A stretch of DNA of 64,000 nt from Candidatus Poriferisocius sp. Lineage in GTDB: Bacteria > Actinomycetota > Acidimicrobiia > Acidimicrobiales > Bin134. The stretch covers positions 215,095-279,094 of the forward strand of contig NZ_OZ241836.1 in the NCBI RefSeq assembly GCF_965202595.1, written 5' to 3'. The position numbers and the translations under genes were made by a program. Positions within the stretch are counted from its first letter, which is position 1, and each line of letters starts with the position of its first letter. Under the pieces are notes generated by a model. That model saw nothing but the letters and a program-made list of their open reading frames with translations, made no database searches and was not told the DNA's origin. Below are positions 3,467 to 53,556 of this stretch, one piece after another.

Positions 3467-6400
3467 GTGATGGTTGACCGGTTTGGTTTCGGTTGGGTGG
3501 GGTTGCGCCGGTTTGGTGGGCCTCTGGTTGTTTTGGTGTTGTTGGGGTCGGTGTTGGTTTCGGTGGGGGGTGTGGTTGCGCAGGGGGGTGTGCCGGCGTA
3601 TCCGTTGTCGCCGAAGGTGGAGGTGTTGGGTGGTGGTCAGGTTCGGTTGTCGTGGGAATCACCGGGGTCGGGTGAGGTGCGTTATGAGTACATGTTTTCG
3701 CAATCGACTGATGCTGGGACCACGTGGGTTCCGCCGGTGGACAGGGTGGTGGATACTTCTACGGGGTTAGCGCCTGTTTCGGGGGATCGTAGTGGGGTTG
3801 TGTGGCGGCCGGTGCCCGGGGGTGGGGGTGCTCGGTCGGTGGTGGTGTCGGGTTTGACGGTTGGTAGCAGGTACCGGTTCTGGGTGCGGGCGGTGAACGC
3901 TGCGGGAGCGGGCAAAATTCGGGGTATTGGTCGGTCGGATGGGTATTTGATGTCTGGTGTTGCGCCGGTGCCGGCGGCTTTGCGGGCGGTTCCTGGGGAT
4001 TCCCAGGTGGAGTTGAAGTGGACCAAGGCTCGGGGTGAGGTGGTGGGGTCGGGGTTTGCTACTATTTTGCGGTACGAGTACGCGATCAAACAAGGTGATG
4101 GGGGTTGGTCGGCGTGGTCGCCGATACCGGATTTGATTTCGAACAATGCGGTTGTGGCGGCTGAGGATCGCGAGTCGTTCACGGTCACGGGTTTGACCAA
4201 CGATGTTGGGTATTCGTTCCGGGTGCGGGCGGTCAACAAGCATGGCAACGGTGCCACCGGTATGGTGGGGCCGGTGGTGGTAGCAGGCGTGCCGGGGGCT
4301 CCTCGTGGGTTTGTGGTGATGCCGGGGGATAAGTCGGCGTTGTTGTCGTGGCAGCCGCCGGGGGTGGTTGGCTCGCCGATAACGGGTTGGGAAGTCCGGT
4401 GGACGAGTTCGGGTTACAGCGATCTGGGTAGCGCGGCGTGGCAGAGGGTTCCTGGTGGGGCCGGGGCCAGGTCTTATTATGTGAGTGGTTTGGATAATAC
4501 CAAGAGTCATTTGTTTGAGGTGCGGGCTGTCAACGCGTTGGGTGGGGGTTTGGGGGCGCGTTCCGGGTTCGTGTATTTGGGTGCGCTGCTGGAGGTGCCT
4601 GGTGGGTTTAAGACGAGGAAGGTGATGGAGTCGTCGGTGACATTGGGGTGGGACCAGCCGGCTAATTTAGTTAGTGGTGGTGGTAGTGAGGGGTTTCGGC
4701 GTTATGAGTATTCGGTGTGGGCTGGTGATGGTGATTGGGGTGGTTGGGTGGCGATACCGGGTGACTACGCGACTAGTTCGTTCACGGTTCCGGGTTTGAT
4801 GGCGGGCACCGGGTACCGGTTCAGGTTGCGGGCGGTGAATAGTGTGGGTGCGGGTGCGGTGGCTGAGACGGGTGTTGTTTATCCGGGTACGGTGCCGCCG
4901 GCGCCGGCGGTGGTTGCGGAGGTGGTGTCGGATTACACTATAGGGTTGCATCAGGTGGTTTTGTCGTGGACGGGTTCCGATGGTGGTTCCCCGGTGACGA
5001 AGTGGCAGTTGAAACATGCGACAACGGTGGACGGGTTGACCAGCGCGTCGTGGCATGATTTGTGTGATAACACAGCGGGGGCGGATCCGACCTGTGGGGG
5101 GTTGTTGACGGTGACGCTGCCCAGGAATCGGACTTTTGATTACAAGAATGCAACTAGCTGTTTGGTTGTGTTGTGTGTGGGGAGTTTGAAGGTGGGGGAT
5201 CATTATTTCGTGTTGCGGGCGCAGAATGCCAGGGGTGTGGGTTTGGAGTCTGGGGTTGTGAGGGTGAATATCGCCAAGGGTGTTCCCTCTATGGCGACGA
5301 CGGCGGTTTTGAGGGGTTATACTGATGATCCCCGCACCAATGGTCGCCCTCACATGGGGGTAAGCTCTCCTGTGAGTTATCTTCATGGTGGTAAGCGTTT
5401 GCGGTTTGAGTATTCGTGGAAGGTCGGTGATGGGCCGTGGAGTGGATGGGCTACTCAACAGGGTAGCTTGAGTAGAGCTACCGAGACTTTCGATGAGGTC
5501 ACTTTCCGGGTTGGGGAGACTTACACGTTCAGGACCCGGACGGTGTCTGATTTGGGGGCGGGTTATGCGGTCGAGTCGGAACCGTTTGTGTTCGGGGCTC
5601 CGCCTTTGCCCGGTGCTGATGGTTGGACGGGTTTTGCTTTGACGCGTCCGGAAGTGTTGGCGGTGCCGGGTAATGGTCAGGTGAAGTTGAACATCGTCCG
5701 ACCCAAAGCGACGCTTGTAAGACGTGCTGATGGGTTTGTGGTTGGTTATGAGAATGCTTTCACCGATACCGATGGTACTTATGATGACACGGTTTGGGAG
5801 TATTCGTATCGTCCCGCCGGGGGTGAGTGGTCGCCGTGGGCGGTGTCCAATACGGGTCAAAGGTTCGCTGATCGGGCTGGGAACAGCGCCGATGTGGCTG
5901 GCGATGGGATCACGGTGTCGGGTTTGCGCAATGGGGTGGCTTATGAGTTCCGGGTTAGGGCGCTGAACCGGCACGGTACCGGTTGGTTGGTGGGTCCGGT
6001 GTTGTATTCCAACGGTGCCGGTTTGTACAACAAAGCCGGCGATGTTTACCCCGACAGGGTAGCCATACCAGGTGTGGCACCCCCCGCCCCCGCAGGGTTG
6101 ACGGCTGTTGGTGGTGATGGTCAGGTAACGCTGTCGTGGATGTCGGTGGGTTCGGGGGGTCCGCCGATCATCCGCTGGGAGTACATAAAACAGGAACGAA
6201 CCGCGGGTAGTACAACGTTCGGTGATTGGGATGGAAATTGGACTCCGGTTCCGGGTTCGGGGCCGTCTACGACTTCGGCGGTGATAAAGGGTTTGACCAA
6301 CGGCTCGACGTACCGGTTCCGCCTGCGGGCGGTGAACGCTTTGATGGCCTTCGACAGCGAGGGTGTTTTGGAGACTGTGACTACCTCTGTCAACAAGGGT

Positions 6401-11908: not shown

Positions 11909-12002
11909 AGTAGGCCGCTTGGGACTCGAACAGGATGCCTTAGCGGTAGGCCGCTTGGGACTCGAGTGGAGCGCTTGAGAAGTAGGCCGCCTGGGACTCG
12001 AA
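11909..12002 (-). repeat. 36-bp tandem repeat: the 3' 22 nt of tRNA-Lys is present three times
   Basis: agtaggccgcttgggactcgaa at 11909, ggtaggccgcttgggactcgag at 11945, agtaggccgcctgggactcgaa at 11981. The last copy is the genuine T-arm/acceptor 3' half. Confidence 0.85.
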
Positions 12003-12055
12003 CCCAGCACCTTGAGATTAAAAGTCTCCTGCTCTACCTGATGAGCTAGCGGCCC
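11983..12055 (-). tRNA. tRNA-Lys (anticodon UUU)
   Basis: Manual cloverleaf on the minus strand: gggccgc ta gctc atcaggta gagc a ggaga cTTTTaa tctca aggtg ctggg ttcgagt cccag gcggcct a. It has GTTCGAGT in the T-loop, one mismatch at the base of the anticodon stem, and no encoded CCA. Confidence 0.85.
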
Positions 12056-13290: not shown

Positions 13291-14505
13291 ATGACCCGGC
13301 GGGTGGCGATCTTGTCCCTGCATACCTCCCCCCTGTCCCAACCCGGTGAGGGTGACAGCGGGGGCATGAACGTGTATGTCCGGGAGATGGCGGCGGCGCT
13401 GGCCCACTCCGGCAACGAGTGCCGGGTGTATGTGCGCCGCGGGCGCGGCGGCCAGGCCGATGAGGTGCCCATCGAGCCGGGGGTGACCGTGGTTCATGTG
13501 GACGCCGGGTCCCCCGATCTGGGCAAGGAGGAGCTTCACGAGGTGGTGGACCGGTTCGCCGATGGCGTGCTGGCCGATTTGCAGCGGCAGGGAGATCCCG
13601 ATGTGATCCATGCCAATTACTGGCTGTCCGGTGTGGCCGGTCACCGGATCAAGCACGCGCTGGAGGTACCTCTGGCCGTGACGTTCCACACGCTGGCCCG
13701 GGTGAAATCGGCTACCGGCGACGCTGAGTCCGAGCGCCGGGCCCGGGCCGAGACCGAGGTGATCGGTTGCGCCGATGTGGTTATAGCCTCCTGCGAGCCG
13801 GAGGCTCAGCAACTGCGGAGTTTCTACGACGCCCCGCCCGAGCGGATCGAACTGGCCGCCCCCGGAGTTGAGCATGCCCTGTTCTCGCCCGGTGATCGGG
13901 AGGGTGCTCGTAGAGCCCTCGGCCTGGGTAGCGGCCCGGTGCTGCTGTTCGTCGGCCGGATCCAGCCGCTGAAACGACCCCTTGTCGCGGTGGAGACCAT
14001 GGCCTGCCTGGCCCGTGAGGATGCTCGGCTGCTCATTGTGGGAGGCCCCAGCGGCCCGGAGGGCAACAACGAGTACCAGCGTCTGCGGGGCCGCATCCAG
14101 GCCCTGGGTTTGGAGGATCGGGTGACGTTGGTGCCCCCCTGCCCCCACCACTGGCTGTCCACTTACTACCGGGCCGCAGATGTAGTGCTGGTTCCCAGCC
14201 GGAGCGAGTCGTTCGGGTTGGTGGCTCTGGAGGCCGCGGCCTGCGGAACCCCGGTGGTGGCTGCCCCCGTCGGCGGCCTGCGCGCGGTGGTTGACGACGG
14301 TCGCACCGGTTTTCTCGTGGACGAGGCTGTGCCCGAAAACTTCGCCAACCGGGTGGCCGCGCTGGTGGACAACCCGCTGCTGGCGGCGGAGATGGCCATG
14401 AACGCGGCCGAGCGAGCCCGATCCTTCTCCTGGGCCGCCATGGCTCGGTCGTTGGGGGCCGTCTACCGAAGGGTCGAGTCCCGAGTACCCGTCTATTGCC
14501 AGTGA
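13291..14505 (+). CDS. mshA: D-inositol-3-phosphate glycosyltransferase (mycothiol biosynthesis), GT4
   Basis: The N-terminal VAILSLHTSPLSQPGEGDSGGMNVYV is the characteristic MshA signature. GT4 C-terminal motif: PSRSESFGLVALEAAACGTPVV. Confidence 0.8.
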   Translation: MTRRVAILSLHTSPLSQPGEGDSGGMNVYVREMAAALAHSGNECRVYVRRGRGGQADEVPIEPGVTVVHVDAGSPDLGKEELHEVVDRFADGVLADLQRQGDPDVIHANYWLSGVAGHRIKHALEVPLAVTFHTLARVKSATGDAESERRARAETEVIGCADVVIASCEPEAQQLRSFYDAPPERIELAAPGVEHALFSPGDREGARRALGLGSGPVLLFVGRIQPLKRPLVAVETMACLAREDARLLIVGGPSGPEGNNEYQRLRGRIQALGLEDRVTLVPPCPHHWLSTYYRAADVVLVPSRSESFGLVALEAAACGTPVVAAPVGGLRAVVDDGRTGFLVDEAVPENFANRVAALVDNPLLAAEMAMNAAERARSFSWAAMARSLGAVYRRVESRVPVYCQ

Positions 14506-14515
14506 TTTATTGCCA

Positions 14516-14648
14516 ATGACGCGGCCTGGTGGTGTTGATCTGTGGGGTTGTCGATGACGCGGCCTGGTGGTGTTGATGTGTGGGGTTGTCGATGACGCGG
14601 CCTGGTGGTGTTGATGTGTGGGGTTGTCGATGACGCGGCCTGGTGGTG
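14516..14648 (+). repeat. 38-bp tandem repeat (3 full units plus a partial one) encoding three ATGA-chained 13-codon mini-ORFs that lead into the next gene
   Basis: Mini-ORFs at 14516-14557, 14554-14595 and 14592-14633 (MTRPGGVD[L/V]WGCR*). Each stop overlaps the next ATG. The last ATG, at 14630, starts the downstream gene (MTRPGGDTGG...). Confidence 0.9.
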
Positions 14649-15118
14649 ATACCGGCGGCAATTTGGCGCTGACGGTTGAGGAGTTGGCTGCGCTGGGGTC
14701 GGCCATCGACGCGTGGCTGGACGATCAGCTCCGAACCAATCCGACCGTGTTGACGGTGGACCGGGGGGAACCCGGCCGGCACCGCTGGTACGTGCGGATG
14801 GTGGGGGAGGAGAAGGCGGTGTCAACCGTGTGGTTCACTCTCGGCCAACGCCAGTTGCACTGCGAGTGCTACTTCATGCCCGCCCCCGAGGAGAACGAGG
14901 GCCAACTGTACGAGTACCTGCTGCGCCGCAATCGTGATCTGGCCGGGTTGCGGTTCGCCATCGGTGTCGAGGATGCCGTGTTCCTGGTTACCGAGTTGCC
15001 GGTCCACGCGGTGACCGAGGCCGAGATGGATCGCATTCTGGGTTCGTTCTACGCCTACGTGGAGAGGTGGTTCCGTCCCTGCATGCGCATCGGCTACGAG
15101 TCACGGTTCAACCCTTAA
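14630..15118 (+). CDS. YbjN-like conserved hypothetical protein (the gene usually found next to mshA in actinobacteria)
   Basis: Track ORF 14618..15118; ATG 14630 is preferred. The family call rests on my recollection of the mshA neighbourhood and on sequence style only. Confidence 0.5.
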   Translation: MTRPGGDTGGNLALTVEELAALGSAIDAWLDDQLRTNPTVLTVDRGEPGRHRWYVRMVGEEKAVSTVWFTLGQRQLHCECYFMPAPEENEGQLYEYLLRRNRDLAGLRFAIGVEDAVFLVTELPVHAVTEAEMDRILGSFYAYVERWFRPCMRIGYESRFNP

Positions 15119-16444: not shown

Positions 16445-16501
16445 GGGCGTGGATCGCTACCTGGTCGGCCGGTACTCCTGGGCCGGTTTGTACCGCCTCG
16501 G

Positions 16502-17389
16502 TTGATACCGCCTCGGGGCACTGGCGCAGCCTTGCGCTACGACACCGTCTCGTTCTTGTCCGATTACGGGCTGGGTGATGAATTCGTCGGGGTGGTGAAG
16601 TCGGTCATCCGGTCTCTGGCTCCCGAGGTGGTGGTGGTGGACATCACCCATGACATTGCTCCTCACGATGTCAGGGCCGGGGGCCTGGCCCTGGCTCGCA
16701 GCGCCCAGTACCTGGTACCCGGGGTGGTGCTGGCCGTGGTCGATCCCGGAGTGGGGGGCAAGCGGCGGGCCGTGGCGGTGGAAGTGGGAGGCGGAACCTC
16801 GGTGCTGGTCGGCCCCGACAACGGCCTGCTGGCCCCGGCGGTGGCCATGGTCGGGGGAGCGACCCGAGTGGTGGAGCTGACCGCCGAGAAATACCACCTT
16901 CGCTCTCCCGGCCCTACATTCGCGGGCCGCGACGTGTTCGCTCCGGTGGCCGCCCACCTGTGTTCGGGGGTCGGGCTCGAAGACGTGGGCACGCCGATCC
17001 CTATGCACTCCCTGACTCCGGGAGTCGTGCCGGTGAGCCGTACCGGCGGCGACCGGATCGATGCCGAGGTGCTTTGGATCGATCGATTCGGGAACTTGCA
17101 GCTCAACCTCGACCCCTCCGACATCGACCCTATGGGTGATGTGCTGAGGATCACCGCGGGCGGTGTGGGTCGCAACGCCCGCCGGGTCAACTGCTTCAGC
17201 GATGTGAGCACTGGTGATCTGGGGATACTGGTAGACTCCTACGGGTTGGCGGCCGTTGCGGTCAACCGAGGTTCGGCAGCGATGGAGTTGAACTGCAAGG
17301 AGGGTGACTCCATCATCGTCGAATCGGGGGAGTCCGCTTTGGCCACCCCGGTGCAACTTCAACCCAGACCCCCGGAGGTGCCGGCATGA
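16502..17389 (+). CDS. SAM hydroxide adenosyltransferase / SAM hydrolase family (DUF62)
   Basis: VSFLSDYGLGDEFVGVVKSVI, PGVVLAVVDPGVG, LVGPDNGLL and IDRFGNL match the fluorinase/chlorinase-like family. Confidence 0.75.
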   Translation: MIPPRGTGAALRYDTVSFLSDYGLGDEFVGVVKSVIRSLAPEVVVVDITHDIAPHDVRAGGLALARSAQYLVPGVVLAVVDPGVGGKRRAVAVEVGGGTSVLVGPDNGLLAPAVAMVGGATRVVELTAEKYHLRSPGPTFAGRDVFAPVAAHLCSGVGLEDVGTPIPMHSLTPGVVPVSRTGGDRIDAEVLWIDRFGNLQLNLDPSDIDPMGDVLRITAGGVGRNARRVNCFSDVSTGDLGILVDSYGLAAVAVNRGSAAMELNCKEGDSIIVESGESALATPVQLQPRPPEVPA

Positions 17390-17484
17390 GACCGGGAACC
17401 ACCATCGCTATCGCCGTGCCATGAGACCGGGAACCACCATCGTCATCGCCGTGCCATGAGACCGGGAACCACCATCGTCATCGC
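17386..17484 (+). repeat. 35-bp tandem repeat (2 units plus a partial one) encoding two ATGA-chained 12-codon mini-ORFs
   Basis: Mini-ORFs 17386-17424 (MRPGTTIAIAVP*) and 17421-17459 (MRPGTTIVIAVP*). The first ATG overlaps the upstream gene's stop (ATGA at 17386-17389). The last stop overlaps ATG 17456. Confidence 0.9.
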
Positions 17485-17545
17485 TGTTTTGCTGCTGGCC
17501 ATCCTGGTGGCGGCGGCGGTCCAATTGTTCGTGCTGGCTCGCTGA
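17456..17545 (+). CDS. 29-aa hydrophobic micro-protein
   Basis: MRPGTTIVIAVLLLAILVAAAVQLFVLAR*: a single predicted TM helix. It is the terminal member of the repeat chain and too short for the ORF track. Confidence 0.4.
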   Translation: MRPGTTIVIAVLLLAILVAAAVQLFVLAR

Positions 17546-19459: not shown

Positions 19460-20434
19460 ATGCTGCGCGCCGCCACCCGAGGCAGCGCCTTGGCCCGCTG
19501 GCAAGCAGCCCACGTAGCCGATCTGCTGGGCGATGCCATCGACGTTCAACTGCTTGTTGTGACCACAACCGGCGACCGGCGAGCCGGCGAGCCCATATCG
19601 TCCATCGGCGGCAAGGGGGTGTTCGTCAAGGAGGTGCAGGCCGCGGTGCTGGACGGGCGGGCCGACCTGGCCGTCCACTCGGCCAAGGACCTGCCCGCCA
19701 CCACCCCCGATGGTCTGGTGGTGGCTGCGGTGCCCCCCCGGGCCGATCCTCGGGACGCGCTGGTGGGCAGCCGGTTGGACGACCTTCCCCCCAAAGGGTT
19801 GGTGGCCACCGGCTCGGCCCGCCGCCGGGTTCAGCTCCGCCGGCTCCGCCCCGATCTGCGGTTCGCCGAGTTGCGGGGCAACATTGACACCCGGCTGGCC
19901 AAGGTGCCCGACTACCACGCAGTGATCATGGCCAAAGCCGCCCTGGACCGGCTGGGCGAGCATCCGAGCGTTGTGGCGGCGCTGGGTCGGCGGGGCGAGC
20001 AACCGAGCGTTGTGGCCGCCCTGGAGCGGCTGGGCGAGCAACCGAACGTTGTGGATGTGTTGGGTCGGCGGCGCGAGCAGCCGGCCATCGTGGATGTGTT
20101 GGACTGCGAGGTTATGGTTCCTCAGGTGGGTCAAGGGGCCCTGGCGGTGGAGTGCCGGGAGGGCGATGATCGGGTCCGCTCCCTTCTGGCCGCCATCGAG
20201 GATCCAATGGCCCGGCGAGCGGTGGACGCCGAGCGGGCCTTTCTGTCCACCCTGGGCGGTGATTGCACCTTGCCCGCGGGAGCCCACGCCCGGATACTCG
20301 ACAACCGGGTGGTGATGCGGGCCGTGCTGGCCGGCGGTGTGGACGGCCGCTGCCACACCATGGTTGACGAGGGCAGCGACGGTGAATCCCTGGGCCAAGA
20401 CTTGGCCCGCCGGTTGCTTGCCGCGGCCCGATGA
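19460..20434 (+). CDS. hemC: Hydroxymethylbilane synthase (porphobilinogen deaminase) with a 39-bp x4 in-frame insertion
   Basis: LRAATRGSALARWQA, GKGVFVKE, RGNIDTRL and PQVGQGALAVECR motifs. ATG 19460 is preferred over the maximal ORF start at 19412. Confidence 0.9.
   Translation: MLRAATRGSALARWQAAHVADLLGDAIDVQLLVVTTTGDRRAGEPISSIGGKGVFVKEVQAAVLDGRADLAVHSAKDLPATTPDGLVVAAVPPRADPRDALVGSRLDDLPPKGLVATGSARRRVQLRRLRPDLRFAELRGNIDTRLAKVPDYHAVIMAKAALDRLGEHPSVVAALGRRGEQPSVVAALERLGEQPNVVDVLGRRREQPAIVDVLDCEVMVPQVGQGALAVECREGDDRVRSLLAAIEDPMARRAVDAERAFLSTLGGDCTLPAGAHARILDNRVVMRAVLAGGVDGRCHTMVDEGSDGESLGQDLARRLLAAAR
19955..20110 (+). repeat. In-frame 39-bp (13-aa) tandem repeat x4 inside hemC
   Basis: ggcgagca[t/a]ccgagcgttgtgg at 19955, 19994 and 20033, with a degenerate copy at 20072. 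Protein: GEHPSVVAALGRR GEQPSVVAALERL GEQPNVVDVLGRR REQPAIVDVLD. Confidence 0.9.
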
Positions 20435-20662
20435 CCGTTTATCCACGATGGCAGGGTTGATGGGCATGGCGTTGAACACTCGCCGGTTGCTTGCTGCGGC
20501 CCGATGACCGTTTATCCACGATGGCAGGGTTGATGGGCATGGCGTTGAACACTCGCCGGTTGCTTGCTGCGGCCCGATGACCGTTTATCCACGATGGCAG
20601 GGTTGATGGGCATGGCGTTGAACACCCGCCGGTTGCTTGCTGCGGCCCGATGACCGTTTACC
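20408..20662 (+). repeat. 73-bp tandem repeat (3 units plus a partial one) of the hemC-stop/cobA-start junction, encoding six chained mini-ORFs
   Basis: cgccggttgcttgc at 20408, 20481, 20554 and 20627. Mini-ORFs: 20431-20460, 20460-20507, 20504-20533, 20533-20580, 20577-20606, 20606-20653. They alternate between 9 aa (MTVYPRWQG) and 15 aa (MGMALNTRRLLAAAR), linked by ATGA and TGATG overlaps. Confidence 0.9.
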
Positions 20663-23587: not shown

Positions 23588-24789
23588 ATGTACTCGGCTG
23601 TTTTGGGGTTGTCGGGATCCATGAGGTTGGCCATGATGCGCAGGGCCCACTCCATGATCGGCCGGGATTGCATGCCGATCCGGGTTAGTTCCCGCAGCAG
23701 CGCCGGTTTGCCGATGAGCCGGGCAAACAGGCGGGCCACCCGAAAGTAATCCCCGTAGCATTCGTCCAGCAGGTTCGGGTACCGCCAGATCACCCCGCCG
23801 TCACCGGTGGCCAGGGCCTCGGCCACCAGATCGGCGGCCATCCGACCCGTCTCGTAGGCGTAGTCGATGCCCTCACCGTTGAACGGGTTGACCGACCCGG
23901 CCGCGTCCCCCACCACCAGGTGGTTGGGCCCCACCTTGGGGTTGACCGACCCGGCCATGGGCAGGCGCCCCCCCACCGGGTCCATCAGCGGCCGGTTGGG
24001 GTCGATCTCCCAGTGGGCGGGCAGGGTGGCCGCGAACTCCCGCATCAAGTGGGAGGTGTTGACCGAGGTGTAGTCACGAAACGTGGACAGCAGACCCACG
24101 CCCACGTTCACGCTCCCGTCGCCCACGGGGAAGATCCAGCCGTATCCCGGCAGTGAATTGCCGTTGCGGTCCCGCACATCCAGGGCGCTCTCGATCCAGG
24201 GGGTGTCGTGGAGCGGGCTCTCGAAGTATGTGCGGATGGCCATGCCCTGGGGGTAGGTCCGGTCCCGGGCCGTTCCCAGGGCCCGGCCGAACCGGGAGTT
24301 GGCCCCGTCGGCGACCACCACATAGCGGGCCCGTACCCGGTCGGTGCCGCCCGTTATGGTGTTCTTCACCTCGACCCCGTCCAGCAGCCCGTTGACCAGC
24401 AGCGGTCGGGTGGCTTCAACCCCGAGCCGGAGTTCGGCCCCCCCGGCTACCGCGTGGTCGGCCACCAGTTGGTCGAGCTCCCGCCTCCGCACCACATAGC
24501 CGTAGTCGGGGAATACCGGGTGGCGGGGCCAGGCCAATTCCATGGTCCGGCCATGGGCCACCGCCCGCAAACCCCGGTAACGGTGGTAGCGGATCATCCG
24601 GTGACCCAAACCCATGTCGTTCAGCGCCTTTACCGCCCGGGGGGTGAGTCCATCGCCGCACGTTTTGTCACGGGGGAACTGCTTGCGCTCCACCACCACC
24701 ACGTCCAGCCCGTGCCGGGCCGCCCAGTAGGCCGTGGCGGCTCCGGCCGGGCCACCGCCGACGACCAGAAGGTCGCGGGAAGTGGTCAG
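23545..24789 (-). CDS. Geranylgeranyl reductase family FAD-dependent oxidoreductase
   Basis: DLLVVGGGPAGAATAYWAARHG dinucleotide fold, RDKTCGDGLTPRA and GDAAGSVNPFNGEGI. No ATG or GTG lies near the fold. The start is inferred as CTG 24789, overlapping a TGA. The maximal ORF (to 24915) would overlap the upstream gene by about 100 nt. Confidence 0.75.
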   Translation of the reverse strand: MTTSRDLLVVGGGPAGAATAYWAARHGLDVVVVERKQFPRDKTCGDGLTPRAVKALNDMGLGHRMIRYHRYRGLRAVAHGRTMELAWPRHPVFPDYGYVVRRRELDQLVADHAVAGGAELRLGVEATRPLLVNGLLDGVEVKNTITGGTDRVRARYVVVADGANSRFGRALGTARDRTYPQGMAIRTYFESPLHDTPWIESALDVRDRNGNSLPGYGWIFPVGDGSVNVGVGLLSTFRDYTSVNTSHLMREFAATLPAHWEIDPNRPLMDPVGGRLPMAGSVNPKVGPNHLVVGDAAGSVNPFNGEGIDYAYETGRMAADLVAEALATGDGGVIWRYPNLLDECYGDYFRVARLFARLIGKPALLRELTRIGMQSRPIMEWALRIMANLMDPDNPKTAEYIYKAAAKASTVASK

Positions 24790-24829
24790 TTCTCCCCCAG
24801 AAGGTCGCGGGAAGTGGTCAGTTCTCCCC
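24765..24829 (-). repeat. 32-bp tandem duplication of the cytochrome-c-stop / reductase-start junction
   Basis: ccagaaggtcgcgggaagtggtcagttctccc at 24765 and 24797. On the minus strand this gives an 11-codon ORF (CTG 24821 to TGA 24786: LTTSRDLLGEN*) between the two genes. Confidence 0.8.
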
Positions 24830-25603
24830 GATCCCGGCCCCGGCGAGTAGGTTGCGCAGCGTGCTGGGGAAGACCTGCCCGATCTCGAAGTCCTCCGGTA
24901 ATGTTGCTCCGGCATCGAACAGCTCCTCCAGTTCGACCAGGTCGGCTTCCGAGGCTCCGCCGAGTTCGGCCCGCTCGAAGTAGGTAACCGCCAGTATCTC
25001 CCGGGCGCTCAGCTTGTCGCCGAAAGCGGGCATGCCGTTGGCGGCACCCACCGACAGATCACCGCCGTCGCCGTAGGGGGTGCCGGGTTCGGGCGGTGAG
25101 CCGTTGATCACCCAGATGACGTGGTCCTCCCAGTCGTTGAATGTTCGAATCACGTCGCCGTTGCTCAGCGCGGGGCCGACCCCACCTCCGCCCTCGGCCC
25201 CGTGGCAGCCGGCGCACCCGCCGTCGTTCTCGTAGACCTCGCGACCCAGGGCAACTATCTCGCTGTCCTGCTCCGGCGACTCCAGGGTACCGGCGAAGAT
25301 GATGGCCCAGAACGGCAGGAAGATCAGCACCGGTACCGCCCATACCGGGATCTTCTTGCGGGTCAGTGCGGCTTTGACCCAGGGCTTGATGGGTTCGGGT
25401 TGAGGCTTGGGATCCGGCTTCAGTTCGGGCAGTTCGGGTAGGGAGGGAGCCGTTGCCGCCGGGGTTCGGGTTTGGGCTACGGCGGGAGCGGCGGTGGTTT
25501 CCGAGGGGGGAACCGATGCGGCCGGTTCGCCGTCAACGGTCGCGCCGAGAGCCTTGCGGCGATCCTTCGATCGTTGCAGCAGATGCTCGGGTACCTCGGT
25601 CAA
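24818..25603 (-). CDS. Membrane-anchored monoheme class-I cytochrome c
   Basis: One CAGCH heme-binding motif, one TM helix (VWAVPVLIFLPFWAIIFAG), and an N-terminal MTEVPEHLLQRS motif. Confidence 0.75.
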   Translation of the reverse strand: MTEVPEHLLQRSKDRRKALGATVDGEPAASVPPSETTAAPAVAQTRTPAATAPSLPELPELKPDPKPQPEPIKPWVKAALTRKKIPVWAVPVLIFLPFWAIIFAGTLESPEQDSEIVALGREVYENDGGCAGCHGAEGGGGVGPALSNGDVIRTFNDWEDHVIWVINGSPPEPGTPYGDGGDLSVGAANGMPAFGDKLSAREILAVTYFERAELGGASEADLVELEELFDAGATLPEDFEIGQVFPSTLRNLLAGAGIGEN

Positions 25604-25678
25604 CGCTCCTCCGGTGTGCCTCCCGGCCGGCAGATCAGCCGACCCGGTGACACATTAGGCCCGCCCGGTGCCGGCGGC

Positions 25679-25753
25679 CCAACTATTCATCCCCCAAGTA
25701 TTCATCCCTCAAGTATTCATCCCCCAAGTATTCATCCCCCAACTATTCATGGC
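25679..25753. repeat. 15-bp direct repeat x5 (iteron-like) in the divergent control region of the respiratory cluster
   Basis: ccaactattcatccc, ccaagtattcatccc, tcaagtattcatccc, ccaagtattcatccc, ccaactattcatggc. Confidence 0.85.
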
Positions 25754-28624: not shown

Positions 28625-29497
28625 TTGCCCGTGGGTATTGCACTCTCCATCGCCATACCGATCATCGTGGTGGCCGCCGCGATCATGCTGGTGGCCGCGG
28701 CCCGCCGCCGGGAGACCATGGCCGCCGAGGGGCACCTGAACCGGGAGACCCGCCGCCGGGATCGCGGCCGGGTGGCCGTCGACGGCGAACCCGTTGCCGG
28801 CCCCACCGGCCGGGAGGTGGAGAGGGCCGCGGTGGTGGCTCGCCAATCCGCCGGCACCGAGGTGGTGGAGGCGGTGGATGCGTCGGTCGAGGAGTGGACC
28901 CCGCCCCATCCCGAGATGGTCGGGGTGAGCCGCCGCCAGTTCCTGAATCGCAGCACGGTGGCCATGATGGGTTTTGGCCTCAGTGGTTTCGGTGCCGCTT
29001 GCATAGCCTTCTTGTGGCCGCCGTTCGTCACCGGTTTCGGTGCCGACGTGAACGTGGGCCTGGTGGACGATGTGAAGTCCCGCATCAAGGATGAGAACGG
29101 TTTCCTTTATATTCCCGAGGGTCGCGCCTGGGTGACGGAGTACCCGCAAGCCGCCTTGCAGAAGGCGCAGAACGTGTACAGCGCTCCGGAGTTGGCGGGG
29201 ATCGAGTCCGGGCTGATTGCCTTGTTCCAGAAGTGCCCCCATCTGGGGTGCCGGGTGCCGTCGTGTTTGACCTCGCAGTGGTTCGAGTGCCCGTGCCACG
29301 GATCCCGCTACAACCAGGTGGGCGAGAAGCGGGGTGGGCCCGCTCCCCGGGGCATGGACAGGTTCGCCATGTCGGTCAACTCCAAGGGGGAGTTCATCAT
29401 CCGCACCGGCACCATTATCCAGGGGCCCCCCATCGGGGTGAACACCACCGGCCAGGAGCCCGAGGGGCCGAGCTGTCTTGGGGGAGCATCGCACTGA
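28625..29497 (+). CDS. Rieske [2Fe-2S] subunit
   Basis: CPHLGC and CPCHGS boxes. Confidence 0.85.
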   Translation: MPVGIALSIAIPIIVVAAAIMLVAAARRRETMAAEGHLNRETRRRDRGRVAVDGEPVAGPTGREVERAAVVARQSAGTEVVEAVDASVEEWTPPHPEMVGVSRRQFLNRSTVAMMGFGLSGFGAACIAFLWPPFVTGFGADVNVGLVDDVKSRIKDENGFLYIPEGRAWVTEYPQAALQKAQNVYSAPELAGIESGLIALFQKCPHLGCRVPSCLTSQWFECPCHGSRYNQVGEKRGGPAPRGMDRFAMSVNSKGEFIIRTGTIIQGPPIGVNTTGQEPEGPSCLGGASH

Positions 29498-29573
29498 TGT
29501 TCGAGTATCCCCGCCGATTCGATGCTCCAACCTGGTGGGGGCCGAGCTGTCTTGGGGGAGCATCGCACTGATG
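29466..29573 (+). repeat. 74-bp duplication of the Rieske-stop / cytochrome-c-start junction, encoding one 24-codon bridging mini-ORF
   Basis: ggccgagctgtcttgggggagcatcgcactgatg at 29466 and 29540. Mini-ORF 29497-29571 (MFEYPRRFDAPTWWGPSCLGGASH*). TGATG overlaps at both ends. Confidence 0.9.
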
Positions 29574-32146: not shown

Positions 32147-32680
32147 ATGACCGGCCAGTACCTGCCGATCCTCGCCCTCGGGGTGCTGGCCGTGTTGTTT
32201 GCCGCCCTCAGCTTCGGTGCATCCCGCCTGCTGGCTCCCCGGCGGCAGACCCGGGCCAAGCTGGCTCCCTACGAGTGCGGGGTCGCCGAGAGCGGTGATG
32301 TCCCGGAGCGGTTCGGGGTGCGGTTCTTTCTCATCGCCATGATCTTCATAGTCTTCGACATCGAGATCATCTTCTTGTACCCCTGGGCGGTGTCCTACCG
32401 GGGGTTGGGTCTGTTCGGCCTGGTGGCCATGGGGGTGTTCGCCCTGGTGGTGTTCGAGTCCTTCGTCTATCTCATAGGCAACGGGGCTCTGGACTGGGGG
32501 CCGGCGCGGTCCTCGTGGCGGCGCGACCCCCGGGTGTTGGCCCACCGCACCAGCGACACCACCATCCGCCGGGTTGGTTTGGACGGTCGCGGTTCTGCGG
32601 GTGGGGTTGGTTTGGATGGTCGCGGTTCTGCGGGTGGGGTTGGTTTGGATGGTCGCGGTTCTGCGGGGGAGGCGGCGTGA
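32147..32680 (+). CDS. nuoA: NADH-quinone oxidoreductase subunit A with a repeat-expanded C-terminal tail
   Basis: PYECG, and [21 protein letters not shown]. The tail carries [11 protein letters not shown] x3. Confidence 0.9.
32571..32669 (+). repeat. In-frame 33-bp tandem repeat x3 at the nuoA 3' end
   Basis: gggttggtttgga[c/t]ggtcgcggttctgcgggtg at 32571, 32604 and 32637. Confidence 0.9.
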
Positions 32681-35745: not shown

Positions 35746-37166
35746 TGGTGGTGGATGGGGGTGTGCGGATTGTTACGTCCCGCTTCGATGTGTCCGACGG
35801 GCACACAATGGCTGGCTATCAGCGTACTGGGGGGTATGAAGGGTTGCGGCGGGCGCTGGGGATGACCCCGGAGCAGGTCCACGACGAGGTTCGTGCCGCC
35901 AGCCTGCTGGGCCGGGGCGGGGCCGGGTTCCCCGCCGGGGTCAAGTGGGGGTTCTGCCCGCCCGGGGTCTGGCCCCGCTACCTGGTGGTGAACGGTGACG
36001 AGTCGGAACCCGGCACCTACAAGGATCGCCTCCTCATGGAGCGTGACCCCCACCAGCTCATCGAGGGTTGCCTGATCGCCTGCTACGCCCTCGGCCTCTC
36101 CCAGTGCTTCCTGTACGTGCGGGGCGAGATGGCCCATGCCCAGGAGCGGCTGGCCGCCGCTCTCAACGAGGCCTACGAGGCCGGGTACGTGGGCCGCAAC
36201 GTGCTCGGTGCCGGCGACTTCTCGGTGGACATCACCCTGCACTGGGGGGCCGGGGCCTACATCGTGGGGGAGGAGACCGCCCTGATCGAGAGCCTGGAGG
36301 GCAAGCGGGGTATGCCCCGATTGAAACCGCCCTACTTCCCGGCTTCCATAGGTCTCTACGGCAAACCCACCATCGTCAACAACGTGGAAACCCTGTCCAA
36401 CCTGCCGTGGATCTTGGCCAAAGGGGGAGCGGCCTTCGCCGCGATGGGGGCGGACGGCTCCACCGGTACCCGGGTGTTCGCAGTGTCGGGCCACGTGGTT
36501 TCCCCCGGCGTGTTCGAGGTTCCCTTCGGCACCACCACATTTCGCGACATCATCTTCGATCCCCGGTACGCCGGTGGCCTCCACCCCGGCCGTACCCTCA
36601 AGACGTTCATCCCCGGCGGGGCGTCGGCTCCCTGGTTCTTCGAGGAGCACCTTGACTTGCCCCTGGAGAAGACCACGGTGGACAAGGCCGGCTCGATGCT
36701 CGGCTCGGGAGCCATCGTGGTCATGGACGACACCACCGACGTGGTGAGGGCCTGCCACAACGTGGTGCGCTTCTTCGCCCGGGAATCCTGCGGCAAGTGC
36801 ACCCCGTGCCGGGAAGGCACCTCGTGGATGGAGAAGATCCTCAGCCGCATCCTGGACGGTCAGGGCCGACCCGATGACCTGGAACTACTGATCGACGTGG
36901 GCGACAACATCAGCCCGGGCGGGCACTGGCCCCCCCGCCAGACCACCATATGCCCGCTGGGCCCATCGGCGGTCTCACCAATCGCCTCCGCGCTGGGCCG
37001 GTTCCGCGACGAGTTCGAGGCCTACCTGCCCGCTGATGCTGTTGTGCCCGCTGACGCTGTTGTGCCGGCTGACGCTGTGATGCCCGCTGACGCTGTTGTG
37101 CCGGCTGATGCTGTGATGCCGGCCACTTCGGTGACCATAACTGCGAGTTCGGGAGCGGCACCGTGA
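35742..37166 (+). CDS. nuoF: NADH-quinone oxidoreductase subunit F with a repeat-expanded C-terminus
   Basis: GRGGAGFPAG, YLVVNGDESEPG and ESCGKCTPCREG motifs. Confidence 0.95.
   Translation: MMVVDGGVRIVTSRFDVSDGHTMAGYQRTGGYEGLRRALGMTPEQVHDEVRAASLLGRGGAGFPAGVKWGFCPPGVWPRYLVVNGDESEPGTYKDRLLMERDPHQLIEGCLIACYALGLSQCFLYVRGEMAHAQERLAAALNEAYEAGYVGRNVLGAGDFSVDITLHWGAGAYIVGEETALIESLEGKRGMPRLKPPYFPASIGLYGKPTIVNNVETLSNLPWILAKGGAAFAAMGADGSTGTRVFAVSGHVVSPGVFEVPFGTTTFRDIIFDPRYAGGLHPGRTLKTFIPGGASAPWFFEEHLDLPLEKTTVDKAGSMLGSGAIVVMDDTTDVVRACHNVVRFFARESCGKCTPCREGTSWMEKILSRILDGQGRPDDLELLIDVGDNISPGGHWPPRQTTICPLGPSAVSPIASALGRFRDEFEAYLPADAVVPADAVVPADAVMPADAVVPADAVMPATSVTITASSGAAP
37029..37118 (+). repeat. In-frame 18-bp tandem repeat x5 at the nuoF 3' end
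   Basis: cc[c/g]gctga[t/c]gctgt[t/g][g/a]tg at 37029, 37047, 37065, 37083 and 37101. Protein: PADAV[V/M] x5. Confidence 0.9.
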
Positions 37167-39790
37167 ACCGGCCGGAAACCGTGGTCAACATCACCGTCAA
37201 CAACCGGTCGGTGCAAGCCACCCCCGGAGAGTGGGTGATTGCCGCTGCCGAACGGGCCGGGGTGTACATCCCCCACTTTTGCTACCACCCCCGCATGAAC
37301 TCGGTGGGCATGTGCCGCATGTGCATCGTGGACATCGACACCGGGCGCGGCCCCGCCCTGCAACCCTCCTGCATGGTGCCGGTCAGCGAGGGAATGGTGG
37401 TGGACACCACCTCCGAGCAGACCCGCAAGGCTCAGGAGGGGGTGCTGGAGTTCCTGCTGTTGAACCACCCGCTGGACTGCCCGGTGTGCGACAAGGGCGG
37501 CGAGTGCCCCCTCCAGGACCAAACCATGTCCCACGGCCCCGGCGAGAGCCGCTTGGTGGAGGAGAAGCGCCATTTCGAGAAGCCCATCCCGGTGAACGAT
37601 CTGGTTTATCTGGACCGGGAGCGCTGCATCCTCTGCGATCGCTGCACCCGGTTTGCCGATGAGGTGGCTGGGGACCCGCTCATCACGTTCCAGGATCGGG
37701 GGGATCGGACTCAGGTCAACACCTTCCCCAATCTGCCCTTCTCCTCGTACTTCAGCGGCAACACCGTGCAGATCTGCCCGGTGGGGGCCCTCACCGCTCG
37801 ACCCTACCGGTTCAAGGCCCGCCCCTGGGACCTCACCGAGGTGGAGTCCACCTTCCCCAACCCCATGGGTGATCGGGTGGTGGTGCAGGCCTCTCGCGAC
37901 CAGGTGCTGCGCTACCAGGGAGTGGACAGCGACGCGGTCAACTGGGGGTGGCTCACCGACAAGGATCGGTTCGCATTCGAAGCTCTTGATCGGGGGCCAC
38001 GGCTGACGGTGCCGCTGGTTCGGGGCTCCTCGATGAGTGGCTCCGACCCCGGCGGCCAGGAGCTGGTGGAGTCCTCCTGGCATCAAGCCCTCAACCGGGC
38101 CGCGGAGGCCATCCGGGCTGCGGTGGCCGACCGGGGTCCGGGGTCGGTGGCGATACTGGGTGGGGCCCGCTCGACCAACGAGGACCAGTACGCCTGGGCT
38201 CGCCTGGCCAAGGGGGTTATCGGCACCGACCATGTTGACGCTCAGCTCGACGACGGCCTGCCCGCCGATGTCGTGCTCGGCCTGCCTCGGGCCACCATCA
38301 ATCGGGCCTGCACCCCCGGCGGCACCGTGATCTTGATGGCACCCGATCCCAAGGAGGAACAAGGCACCCTCTACCTGCGGCTCCGCCACGCCGTGACCAA
38401 CGACGGCGTGCAGCTCATCGAGCTGACCCCCCGAGCCACCGGTTTGAGCCATCTCGCCGCCCACCGGCTGCACCACCGCCCCGGTGAGGTTGCCGCGGTG
38501 GCGGCGGCCCTGGTGGGCGGCGATATCGATGTCGGACCCGCCGGTGAGATCGGCGGGGTTCCCGGTCCGGTGCTGGCCGCTGCGGCGGCCGGGCTGGTGG
38601 CCCGAGCCGATCAACCCATAACCGTGATCCTGGGTCGCCCTTCGCTGGCCGAGTCGGCCGCCCCTACGGTGGAGGCCGCCGCCGAACTGTCCAAGCTGGC
38701 CCGGCTGCTCGCCGCGGGCGGGCGACCCGGCATGAGTTTCCTGCCCGTACTGCACCGGGGCAACGTGTTCGGCGCGCTCGACATGGGTCTGGCTCCCGGT
38801 CTGCTGCCGGGCCGGGTGTCCCGGGCCGATGGTGGCTCGGCGGTGGCCGAGTTTTGGGGTTCGTTACCGGCGGACCCGGGCGCTGGGGCCGGCATCGCCA
38901 CCGGCGCTGCCACCGGCGCTGGGGCTGGTGCTGTCACCGGCGCTGCCACCGGCGCTGCCACCGGCGCTGGGGCCGGCGGGATCCTGGAAGCGGCCGCAGG
39001 GGGACGAATCGAGGTGCTGATCCTTTTGGGGGCCGATCCTTTGGGCGACGTTCCCAACGCCAAGCTGGCCGAGACCGCTCTGGCCGGGGTGGGCACCATC
39101 ATTGCCTCCGACTTGTTCCTGAACCCCTCCGCGGCCCGGGCCGACATCGTTTTCCCGGTCACGGCGTTCGGTGAGCATCGGGGTACCCACACCAACCTGG
39201 AGGGTCGGATCACCCGGCAGCGCCAGATTGTCACCCCTCCGGGTACGGCCCGGACCAACTGGTCCATCGCCACCGATCTGGCTCGGTTGCTGGGCACCGA
39301 TTTCGGGTTTGCCGACCCCGAGGCGGTGTGGTCCGAGATCACCCGGGTGGCCCCGTCGCACCGGGACCTGACCCTGGAGGCCGTGGAAGCCGAAACCGAT
39401 GGCGTGGTGGTTGCCGGTAGCTCCATCGTGTTCACCCCGCCCGGCGAACCGGTGCCGGTACCCCCGGCCGATGCCTACGGCCTGCGGTTGGTGTCGTCGC
39501 GCCGCATGTACGACCGGGGCACGCTGCTTCAGCACTCCCCCTCCCTGGCCGGTTTGGCTCCCACGGCGGTGCTGGCCGTGAACCCCTCCGACTTTCAGGG
39601 TGTCGGGGTGGATCCCGGTACCGAGGTTCAGGTCGTCTCCCCGGTCGGTGAGATGACCGTGCCGCTGGTGGTCGACCCCGGTGTGCCCCGAGGGACCGCA
39701 GCTTTTGGCTACAACCACCCCGACCGCGATGTACGAGAACTCATCGACCCGGCCGCGGTGGTTACCGATGTGAGGATTCAGACCCGATGA
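37163..39790 (+). CDS. nuoG: NADH-quinone oxidoreductase subunit G
   Basis: N-terminal 2Fe-2S/4Fe-4S Cys clusters (CYHPRMNSVGMCRMC, HPLDCPVCDKGGECPLQD, CILCDRC) and a molybdopterin-like domain. A GA/T-rich low-complexity insertion lies around 38870-38990. Confidence 0.95.
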   Translation: MNRPETVVNITVNNRSVQATPGEWVIAAAERAGVYIPHFCYHPRMNSVGMCRMCIVDIDTGRGPALQPSCMVPVSEGMVVDTTSEQTRKAQEGVLEFLLLNHPLDCPVCDKGGECPLQDQTMSHGPGESRLVEEKRHFEKPIPVNDLVYLDRERCILCDRCTRFADEVAGDPLITFQDRGDRTQVNTFPNLPFSSYFSGNTVQICPVGALTARPYRFKARPWDLTEVESTFPNPMGDRVVVQASRDQVLRYQGVDSDAVNWGWLTDKDRFAFEALDRGPRLTVPLVRGSSMSGSDPGGQELVESSWHQALNRAAEAIRAAVADRGPGSVAILGGARSTNEDQYAWARLAKGVIGTDHVDAQLDDGLPADVVLGLPRATINRACTPGGTVILMAPDPKEEQGTLYLRLRHAVTNDGVQLIELTPRATGLSHLAAHRLHHRPGEVAAVAAALVGGDIDVGPAGEIGGVPGPVLAAAAAGLVARADQPITVILGRPSLAESAAPTVEAAAELSKLARLLAAGGRPGMSFLPVLHRGNVFGALDMGLAPGLLPGRVSRADGGSAVAEFWGSLPADPGAGAGIATGAATGAGAGAVTGAATGAATGAGAGGILEAAAGGRIEVLILLGADPLGDVPNAKLAETALAGVGTIIASDLFLNPSAARADIVFPVTAFGEHRGTHTNLEGRITRQRQIVTPPGTARTNWSIATDLARLLGTDFGFADPEAVWSEITRVAPSHRDLTLEAVEAETDGVVVAGSSIVFTPPGEPVPVPPADAYGLRLVSSRRMYDRGTLLQHSPSLAGLAPTAVLAVNPSDFQGVGVDPGTEVQVVSPVGEMTVPLVVDPGVPRGTAAFGYNHPDRDVRELIDPAAVVTDVRIQTR

Positions 39791-39840
39791 CGGCTGACCC
39801 GGCTGCGGTGGTTACCGATGTGAGGATCCGGACCCGATGA
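39746..39840 (+). repeat. 50-bp duplication of the nuoG/nuoH junction with a 17-codon bridging mini-ORF
   Basis: gacccggc.gcggtggttaccgatgtgaggat.c.gacccgatga at 39746 and 39796. Mini-ORF 39787-39840 (MTADPAAVVTDVRIRTR*). ATGA overlaps at both ends. Confidence 0.9.
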
Positions 39841-41063: not shown

Positions 41064-41130
41064 TGGGATACCTTGAGTTCACCCGATGGTGGCTGGATCC
41101 CCAAGGTGGTTTTGCCTGATGGGATACCTT
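41039..41130 (+). repeat. 56-bp duplication of the nuoH/nuoI junction with an 18-codon bridging mini-ORF
   Basis: ggatccccaaggtggttttgcctgatgggatacctt at 41039 and 41095. Mini-ORF 41063-41119 (MGYLEFTRWWLDPQGGFA*). TGATG overlaps at both ends. Confidence 0.9.
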
Positions 41131-41775: not shown

Positions 41776-41818
41776 TGGAGACAGCGGTTCGCAAAGCCCA
41801 TGGCGGGGGTCACCACTG

Positions 41819-41826
<8 letters not shown>
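41758..41826 (+). repeat. 44-bp duplication of the nuoI/nuoJ junction with a 14-codon bridging mini-ORF
   Basis: ggcgggggtcaccactgatggagac at 41758 and 41802. Mini-ORF 41775-41819 (METAVRKAHGGGHH*). Confidence 0.9.
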
Positions 41827-42356
<530 letters not shown>

Positions 42357-42370
<14 letters not shown>

Positions 42371-42461
42371 TGGTCACCGCATTCTGGTATGTCCGTTGCC
42401 GGCCACCGCGGGGGCTGCGACCGGCCCCCGGTGAAGACTGATGGTCACCGCATCCTGGTAT
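42357..42461 (+). repeat. 71-bp duplication of the nuoJ/nuoK junction with a 23-codon bridging mini-ORF
   Basis: ccggtgaagactgatggtcaccgcat.ctggtat at 42357 and 42428. Mini-ORF 42370-42441 (MVTAFWYVRCRPPRGLRPAPGED*). Confidence 0.9.
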
Positions 42462-53555: not shown

Positions 53556-53556
53556 A

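Follow-up and report, generated by a model that had tools for sequence, protein, structure and literature searches.

A probably locally generated array of chained mini-ORFs at the mshA–ybjN junction of Candidatus Poriferisocius, with probable preservation of translational coupling

The closest described parallels to the repeat considered here are the interspersed repetitive units of mycobacteria (MIRUs), tandem units of ~40-100 base pairs (bp) situated between the genes of operons (PMC3184786), whose open reading frames (ORFs) couple to the adjacent gene with a -4 spacing (PMC12548453). In the Mycobacterium tuberculosis complex, MIRU variable-number tandem repeat (MIRU-VNTR) loci are cited as comprising ~40-50 related interspersed copies, for which mobility was proposed (Supply et al. 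1997, as cited in PMC12548453 and PMC3184786). The -4 NTGA spacing is held to support translational coupling, a phenomenon that is widespread and whose mechanism and necessity are still debated (reviewed in PMC12548453). The present analysis concerns a stretch of 64,000 nucleotides (nt) from Candidatus Poriferisocius sp. (contig NZ_OZ241836.1, positions 215,095 to 279,094), hereafter the window, and within it a 38-bp tandem array that separates an mshA-like from a ybjN-like gene and is composed of short ORFs chained to one another by ATGA. This array is probably a locally generated minisatellite at a translationally coupled junction, kept because termination-reinitiation coupling is preserved.

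Like MIRUs, the array consists of tandem units of tens of bp between genes that appear to be co-transcribed, its 38-bp unit falling slightly under the quoted MIRU range; each unit carries a short ORF that reads the same way as the flanking genes, the ends of which overlap the neighbouring stop and start codons by the same -4 spacing, so that coupling would be preserved; close relatives, as species representatives, differ in copy number; and the host is a high-G+C actinobacterium. Unlike the interspersed MIRU family, each locus here has a unit of its own, built from its own junction (64 kb and 21 units compared), and since the units are locus-specific the array does not belong to an interspersed family. 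Units can also be shorter than those of MIRUs (14-74 bp), the host lineage is one of Acidimicrobiia sponge symbionts, and the density is far higher, with about one third of the window's co-directional junctions involved. In function the array would be a counterpart of MIRU-VNTR loci, with locus-specific, locally made units and in another actinobacterial class. A literature search returned no natural serial relay of mini-cistrons outside MIRUs, and nothing on repeats in Poriferisocius or on relay arrays that arise locally. The links resemble those of NTGA or TGATG coupled pairs (PMC12548453), being -4 (ATGA, GTGA, TTGA) or -1 (TGATG), and the single-copy ancestor would have been an ordinary coupled pair; unlike such pairs, the array would interpose five consecutive couplings through non-functional mini-cistrons rather than one between two genes. 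As in synthetic bicistronic designs (PMC12548453), a short ORF would solely deliver the ribosome to an overlapping downstream start, whereas the present arrangement is natural, serially repeated, and fed by the upstream gene rather than by a strong ribosome-binding site of its own.

Anatomy of the mshA–ybjN junction

The elements of the junction are listed below, the three 13-codon ORFs as read from the sequence and the bridging ORF from the sequence and a chain walk.

13291-14505, plus strand: mshA, MshA-like GT4 glycosyltransferase (NCBIfam TIGR03449), 404 amino acids (aa), stop codon TGA at 14503-14505
14502-14519, plus strand: bridging 5-codon mini-ORF, VIYCQ then stop
14516-14648, plus strand: tandem array, 38 bp x 3.5, unit ATGACGCGGCCTGGTGGTG + TTGATGTGTGGGGTTGTCG, Tandem Repeats Finder (TRF) score 259
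14516-14557, plus strand: putative relay mini-ORF 1, 13 codons, MTRPGGVDLWGCR then stop
14554-14595, plus strand: putative relay mini-ORF 2, 13 codons, MTRPGGVDVWGCR then stop
14592-14633, plus strand: putative relay mini-ORF 3, 13 codons, MTRPGGVDVWGCR then stop, its TGA overlapping the ybjN ATG
14630-15118, plus strand: ybjN, YbjN-domain protein (PF10722), 162 aa, 100% identical to database protein P0001

TRF returned a period of 38, 3.5 copies and 98% matches with no indels, and head-to-tail units of at least 10 bp at this identity make the array a minisatellite. The three 13-codon mini-ORFs are joined by ATGA, and a fourth ATG, at 14630, opens the 162-aa ORF. Copy 1 differs from copies 2-3 at a single base, the mini-ORF peptides being alike save for one L/V change. 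An earlier sequence-only reading had described these three ATGA-linked ORFs and had placed the first ATG, at 14516, 10 nt past the mshA stop; sequence reading and TRF bear out the former, and the position of the TGA at 14503-14505 the latter. That reading overlooked, however, a bridging mini-ORF whose GTG (14502-14504) overlaps the mshA stop as GTGA and whose own TGA overlaps the ATG at 14516 as ATGA. Because this ORF overlaps both, the chain from mshA to ybjN is unbroken, running from mshA through 5, 13, 13 and 13 codons to ybjN with -4 overlaps at all links. The bridging ORF derives from a 14-nt duplication of the mshA 3' end (TCTATTGCCAGTGA / TTTATTGCCAATGA).

The proposal that the start region of the downstream gene had been triplicated holds for one half of the unit. 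The first 19 nt of ybjN (ATGACGCGGCCTGGTGGTG, encoding MTRPGG) are present four times; the second 19 nt (TTGATGTGTGGGGTTGTCG) have no counterpart in ybjN or mshA as they now stand, or elsewhere in the window, and no template for them was found on either strand of the 64 kb. By eye, TTGATGTGTGGGGTTGTCG shows weak resemblances of 7-11 nt to the 5' region of ybjN in a relative, L001, and to the mshA 3' end. The complete 38-bp unit was placed only at its three array sites in a search of the window, with zero matches in shuffled controls. An assembly artefact is an unlikely source of the array, because copy 1 is one base off and because similar arrays occur at this junction in the independent long-read and short-read assemblies of relatives.

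Since the unit is a closed ORF (38+4 = 42 = 14 x 3), mshA and ybjN remain intact and in frame at any copy number. In contingency loci and other phase-variable repeats, slippage-prone repeats lie by a start codon and copy-number change is the mode of mutation. The array likewise adjoins a start codon, is slippage-prone and mutates by copy number; unlike such loci, a change in its repeat number shifts the frame of neither gene, and would at most grade expression rather than switch it on or off.

The ATG at 14630, which the sequence-only reading had taken as the real gene start with MTRPGG, is the best-supported start of ybjN: it is that of P0001 (NCBI name, YbjN domain-containing protein [Candidatus Poriferisocius sp.]), to which the ORF is identical over its full length; the YbjN proteins of relatives have N-terminal extensions of like length that also start with MT(R/Q/S/E); and the chain arrives there in frame. 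The product has 308 homologues at E<=0.001, and PF10722 is present in 119 of the 120 of those listed. An in-frame TTG at 14663, the counterpart of the short MIL.. form of relatives, may be a second initiation site, which leaves the reading unchanged because it lies in the same frame as ATG 14630. For mshA, the best NCBIfam match is TIGR03449 (mycothiol_MshA), with E=7e-117 and 390.7 bits, under the curated cut-off of 462.5, and its C-terminal ..PV(Y/D)C(T/Q), followed by the stop, is conserved among relatives. Neither a promoter-like nor a terminator-like site was found between the two genes, and because these signals are absent a single mshA-ybjN transcript is likely; co-oriented and linked by -4 stop/start overlaps, the genes show the spacing of a coupled pair. 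A structured RNA or riboswitch was considered and rejected, as the array region has no Rfam match at E<=1 and its fold is unremarkable (z=-1.0), with no notable palindrome.

The junction in related genomes

A scan of species-representative genomes yielded 18 Poriferisocius-like loci (76-88% protein identity) and 62 more distant Acidimicrobiales loci; homologue look-ups supplied further Poriferisocius-like loci, and the mshA–ybjN junction was compared in 21 genomes. The genus is a group of Acidimicrobiia, and the related assemblies are from marine sponge metagenomes. The simple state, with the mshA TGA over the ybjN ATG (..GATTGCACATGATTCTG..), is that of L001, L005, L010, L012, L013, L014, L016, L018 and L096; a direct ATGA overlap is present in 8 of the 21 genomes and a 10-nt gap in one further genome. 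Because the overlap is direct in these eight and most of the more distant Acidimicrobiales have an NTGA overlap, the ancestral junction appears to have been an mshA TGA overlapping the ybjN ATG (ATGA, -4 spacing).

Eleven of the 21 genomes carry one to four mini-ORFs, and the reading-frame chain is intact in all 11, with -4 or -7 overlaps throughout. L002, L004, L007, L008 and L017 have one mini-ORF of 12-13 codons; L006 (13+5 codons) and L097 (13+15) have two; L003 (38 bp x 3.5), L009 (38 bp x 3.6) and L015 (35 bp x 3.4) have three; and the window genome has four. Their sequences are largely unrelated between clades (MTLPMACNPVYCT, MTRPAIAEGDCR, MTHPGTGDQAPR, VMLSIAPDSVDCP, MKRLLAHDPGHCP and others). 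The three copies in L009 are only 88% identical, yet a start, an open frame and a stop are kept in each. The stand-alone mini-cistron of the five single-copy genomes suggests that a single-copy 13-codon mini-cistron preceded amplification, a pre-existing mini-ORF then being multiplied.

Copy number differs between close relatives. According to a distance tree of flanking sequences, in which the compared genomes are species representatives, L003 with three copies and L002 and L004 with one have flanks that are 98% identical, and L009 (three) and L007 (one) flanks that are 95% identical; the window (four mini-ORFs) compares with L001 (none) at 88%, and L015 (three) with L010, L012 and L013 (none) at 84-85%. 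With copy number distributed in this way across the tree, at least four separate expansions took place. Empty and filled sites are both present among the relatives, several of the filled ones being explained by local duplication, and the junction is a recurrent hot spot for mini-ORF insertion. It appears repeat-prone well beyond Poriferisocius, since two distant Acidimicrobiales bear 14-bp arrays there: L028 (3911-3975, 14 bp x 4.9, GTGA-chained VTECS then stop) and L069 (3941-3993, 14 bp x 3.8, a 3-codon unit of MCR then stop, with 2-nt gaps).

It is conceivable, if rather improbable, that such changes are adaptive, the array acting as a copy-number rheostat in which each relay step passes on a fraction of the ribosomes and unit gain or loss is selected to set the YbjN:MshA ratio, as it would set subunit ratios at other arrays, in a contingency-like manner that tunes level rather than switching on and off. 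The contrast of one against three copies at 95-98% flank identity, the repeated hits on this junction as far as the two distant Acidimicrobiales, and the fact that copy-number change never shifts the frame of either gene are all consistent with this. However, a metagenome scan for within-population variants gave chance matches only, stepwise down-tuning is hard to rationalise for a fixed-stoichiometry complex such as that encoded by nuo, six consecutive junctions of which carry relay ORFs (see below), and a purifying filter acting on a high duplication rate is a simpler account. The scan in question, an exact search of metagenome contigs for the 19-nt arm, returned four unrelated matches and no same-species array; exact-protein look-ups with YbjN and MshA for same-species strains returned no indexed contig.

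The comparison also bears on whether the encoded peptide itself matters. A functional 13-residue peptide whose dosage was raised by triplication would fit ORFs that are intact and identical but for the one L/V change. It is nevertheless barely credible, as the junction peptides of relatives have in common only what comes from the ends of the flanking genes (MT.., and ..DC(T/P) before the stop) and about half of the relatives have no mini-ORF at the junction; the candidate was rejected for want of conservation across relatives.

A frame rule at the junctions of the window

The sequence-only reading had treated the array as a lone curiosity, a view that does not survive the wider comparison: it is one of a lineage-wide class of frame-constrained junction duplications. 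An exact-repeat scan around every stop codon of the window was used to find two-copy junction duplications; because calls of genes from third-position G+C (GC3) and the chain-walker are crude, and some of their lines are artefacts, only junctions checked by eye are relied on. In the window, about 14-15 of the 38 co-directional junctions examined are affected by junction duplications or relay ORFs, and all eight arrays with a period of at least 17 not divisible by three sit at co-directional gene junctions. Read in three frames, the junction arrays are mini-ORF chains linked by ATGA, GTGA, TTGA or TGATG. Besides the 38-bp array, the junction arrays and two-copy duplications are as follows.

17385-17484, plus strand: sister array, 35 bp x 2.9, two ATGA-chained mini-ORFs, MRPGTTI(A/V)IAVP then stop
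20408-20660, plus strand: sister array, 73 bp x 3.5, each unit with two mini-ORFs, MTVYPRWQG and (L)MGMALNTRRLLAAAR, each then stop
24765-24829, minus strand: perfect junction duplication, 32 bp x 2, CTGA overlap only
29464-29573, plus strand: junction duplication, period 74, perfect arms of 36 nt, a single relay mini-ORF overlapping its neighbours on either side by TGATG
39744-39853, plus strand: nuoG/nuoH junction, 50 bp x 2.2, one ATGA-chained mini-ORF, MTADPAAVVTDVRIRTR then stop
41038-41130, plus strand: nuoH/nuoI junction duplication, period 56, 37-nt arms, mini-ORF MGYLEFTRWWLDPQGGFA then stop
41757-41826, plus strand: nuoI/nuoJ junction duplication, period 44, mini-ORF METAVRKAHGGGHH then stop
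42357-42453, plus strand: nuoJ/nuoK junction duplication, period 71, mini-ORF MVTAFWYVRCRPPRGLRPAPGED then stop
42732-42844, plus strand: nuoK/nuoL junction, 38 bp x 3.0, two ATGA-chained mini-ORFs, MS(M/T)LVDAEGLVGT then stop
44686-44795, plus strand: nuoL/nuoM junction duplication, period 71, GTGA-chained mini-ORF
60493-60648, minus strand: sister array, 68 bp x 2.3, GTGA-chained mini-ORFs
63454-63523, minus strand: sister array, 17/34 bp, four ORFs of 4-6 codons, MRYPRR, MRCQWR, MRCPWQ and MRYQ, each then stop

Thirteen duplications span -4 or -1 junctions, with periods of 38, 35, 73, 32, 50, 68, 17, 74, 56, 44, 71, 71 and 72, and 11 of the 13 are 2 mod 3 (binomial P=2.1e-4 against an expected 1/3). 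An ORF opened by the NTG of copy n can close on the TGA of copy n+1 solely at a period of 2 mod 3, and no stop intervenes in such ORFs because the frame of the downstream gene is read first and then that of the upstream gene; at 38, which is 2 mod 3, each copy is a closed 13-codon ORF with its TGA over the next ATG. The only period of 1 mod 3, that of the 20408 array, is accompanied by an internal TTGA/TGATG overlap that restores the frame, and the lone 0 mod 3 case, 72 bp at 51724, reads as an in-frame N-terminal extension. When random duplications of array-free junctions were simulated, the chain was kept in 27% of trials, and only at 2 mod 3. Junction 30907, where the native stop and start share a frame 6 nt apart and the period is 66, fits the more general rule that the period equals the gap mod 3. 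The two-copy duplications at 29464, 41038, 41757, 42357 and 44686 each have one relay mini-ORF that overlaps at both ends, and the ORFs at 63454 run on into the downstream gene through ATGA links followed by GTGA. The 24765 duplication lacks a canonical start codon, and was included in the period statistics with its chain uncertain. The protein encoded past it, of FAD/NAD-binding type (..LLVVGGGPAGAA..), lacks an ATG, GTG or TTG in the vicinity of its conserved N-terminus and may start at CTG. This frame bias of the surviving duplications indirectly favours the view that translation of the downstream gene may depend on that of the upstream gene; selection rather than chance would lie behind the bias.

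The frame rule is also where a neutral account is best judged. In that account the array is an untranslated minisatellite, slipped-strand junk in the spacer between the genes; ybjN self-initiates at 14630 with the help of the repeat's GGGG, and the ATGA chain is incidental, arising because the copied segment happens to include ATGA. Translation of the mini-ORFs is predicted from sequence, their peptides are unconserved, any duplication whose period is 2 mod 3 brings the chain with it automatically, and the genome is minisatellite-rich, at 3.4 arrays per 10 kb where other Acidimicrobiia have 0.5. Nevertheless, a neutral origin leaves unexplained why 11 of 13 junction duplications fall in the ORF-closing frame class (P=2e-4), why the 1 mod 3 exception has a compensating internal overlap, why start, open frame and overlapping stop are present in the diverged copies of L009, L097 and L006, and why a GTGA..ATGA mini-ORF bridges the mshA stop to the first ATG; it is considered unlikely.

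Further evidence comes from orthologous junctions that were hit independently. The 17385 array separates a SAM-hydroxide-adenosyltransferase-like gene from a conserved gene for a 29-aa membrane peptide (names from the Pfam calls of relatives); the period at this junction, 35 bp in the window, is 38/44 bp in L001, and both follow the frame rule, while 17 other relatives have a plain ATGA there, save L014, in which the upstream gene ends earlier. The junction 5' of the adenosyltransferase-like gene has a 47-bp x 4 TTGA chain in L001 and a 62-bp ATGA duplication in L014. In the window, a diverged duplicate of the 3' end of an excisionase-like gene (VDHYLASRYTQAG against VDRYLVGRYSWAGLYRLG, each then stop) forms a relay ORF at 16445-16505 (plus strand), ending with TTGA over a TTG in frame with the adenosyltransferase-like gene. 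The 29-codon gene that follows the 35-bp array (17455-17544, plus strand, MRPGTTIVIAVLLLAILVAAAVQLFVLAR then stop) is near-invariant in 19 of 19 genomes and annotated as a gene in relatives; it has no Pfam family and looks like a conserved small membrane protein.

Relay mini-ORFs are present at six consecutive nuo junctions of the window genome (G/H, H/I, I/J, J/K, K/L and L/M; names by synteny with Pfam-annotated relatives), as against 4 of 70 nuo junctions in ten relatives, and the nuoK start at 42441 agrees with database protein P0122. In the relatives, relay mini-ORFs of 13-19 codons with no recognisable arms were seen at nuoH/I in L087/L091 (~2708-2767), nuoG/H in L090 (~1500-1540) and nuoK/L in L093 (~4303-4358), other genomes having a direct overlap or a 7-15-nt gap; these may be old, drifted duplications.

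Several duplications, including the 38-bp array, have an A-B-A form, with perfect arms that run from the last codons across the stop/start overlap into the first codons, and unique cores of 19-38 nt for which a template was not detected in the window. Such perfect arms around a unique core at several junctions, together with the relay ORFs of L087/L091, L090 and L093, could be taken for a MIRU-like mobile element, a short unit that inserts at start codons and carries its own coupled ORF. This is very unlikely: among 21 units compared all-against-all (210 pairs), similarity was found in one orthologous pair only, the cores have no second copy in the window, and several arrays simply repeat the local junction in tandem (for instance 17385 in the window and 6740 in L001). 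A dispersed repeat family or mobile element was rejected on the window sequence as well, where the unit and its halves are unique and the junction units mutually unrelated.

Proposed mechanism and further features of the window

Taken together, these data allow a model in which duplication of a short segment of the ancestral ATGA junction produced a 38-nt mini-cistron with an ATGA motif on either side, later raised to three full copies by slippage or by unequal recombination between the repeated 19-nt arms. A ribosome ending mshA would reinitiate first on the 5-codon ORF, next on the 13-codon ORFs one after another, and last on ybjN. Other periods would push ribosomes out of frame over the ybjN start or extend the protein, and would mostly be purged; the lineage would make short tandem duplications at a high rate, of which only closed mini-cistrons survive at coupled junctions. 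The proposed filter is the logic put forward for MIRUs, whose ORFs are -4-coupled to the adjacent gene (PMC12548453, PMC3184786). The array is probably near-neutral, extra units may dampen ybjN translation somewhat, and the peptide would not be the product of importance. A plausible life cycle leads from duplication through expansion and drift of the unconstrained core to either loss or fusion in frame. Fused mini-ORFs may account for the long MTRP.. N-terminus of the window's YbjN and for the similar MT.. extensions in L001, L015, L017 and L018.

Several considerations weigh against this model. The GTG and the first ATG lack an obvious Shine-Dalgarno motif, so that the relay would rest wholly on reinitiation at five successive overlaps, and ybjN output by relay alone would be low if each step were inefficient. 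Copies 2-4 put GGGG 9-12 nt 5' of their ATG, and GGGG supplied by the repeat could allow independent initiation at 14630. The relay is a prediction from sequence for an uncultured symbiont, and the model offers no source for the unit's second 19 nt (TTGATGTGTGGGGTTGTCG), which have no template in the window. Finally, the frame statistics are drawn from one 64-kb window and ~0.25 Mb of related loci, and homologous arrays in relatives are not fully independent events.

The lineage-wide frame-constrained pattern outweighs the single array in importance. A broader reading, offered tentatively, is that a high duplication rate in one lineage (the window genome and its sister L001), joined to heavy reliance on termination-reinitiation, has reinvented the MIRU architecture locus by locus and genome-wide, at about one third of operon junctions and at six consecutive nuo junctions among them, in arrays that pass from duplication through VNTR expansion to a unique relay ORF and then to loss or fusion, and that could act as evolvable translation dampers. 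Surviving junction duplications are in effect natural experiments on which frame arrangements are tolerated, the outcome here being strongly one-sided, and serial relays of 2-6 mini-cistrons test whether the downstream gene can withstand many rounds of reinitiation. If the lineage-wide reading is true, it would provide a sequence-readable natural assay of how strictly bacteria need stop-start coupling; the pattern also offers an alternative, non-mobile origin for MIRU-like repeats, and MIRUs themselves may have begun as local junction duplications. The arrays would be VNTR markers for strain typing of uncultured sponge symbionts, and gene callers will mis-start, or leave unexplained 'gaps', at such junctions.

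Minisatellite density per 10 kb is 3.4 in the window and ~7 in the sister L001, as against ~0.6 in other Poriferisocius loci and 0.49 in other Acidimicrobiia. Arrays with periods divisible by three sit inside coding frames. High-identity in-frame minisatellites with 33-39-bp periods and 2-5 copies lie at 55141-55295 (33 bp x 4.7), 51431-51616, 32571-32667, 37027-37120 (PADAVV repeats) and 19937-20083, often near protein termini; they show the same tendency to duplicate, here with a filter that lets through periods divisible by three. On the minus strand, 11909-12055 contains a tRNA-Lys(TTT) (11982-12055, ARAGORN) followed by two partial copies of its 3' end (T-arm and acceptor), a tandem triplication with a 36-bp period and 2.6 copies that could reflect the same duplication-prone behaviour or be a trace of integration events. 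Just 5' of a minus-strand gene (24818-25654), a 15-bp unit, ATGAATACTTGGGGG, is repeated 4.9 times at 25678-25750 (minus strand); each unit has, in one frame, GGGGG plus an ATG (repeats of MN(S/T)WG, interrupted by a single in-frame stop), and the array may be either a ribosome-binding site and start in several copies or a leader. A 95-nt tRNA-Arg(ACG) that ARAGORN places within the coding sequence of nuoH, at 40881-40975 (plus strand), is probably spurious. The G+C fraction falls to 0.44-0.58 at 48000-50000, 52000-54000 and 56000-60000, compared with ~0.66 elsewhere in the window, and these stretches may be horizontally acquired islands.

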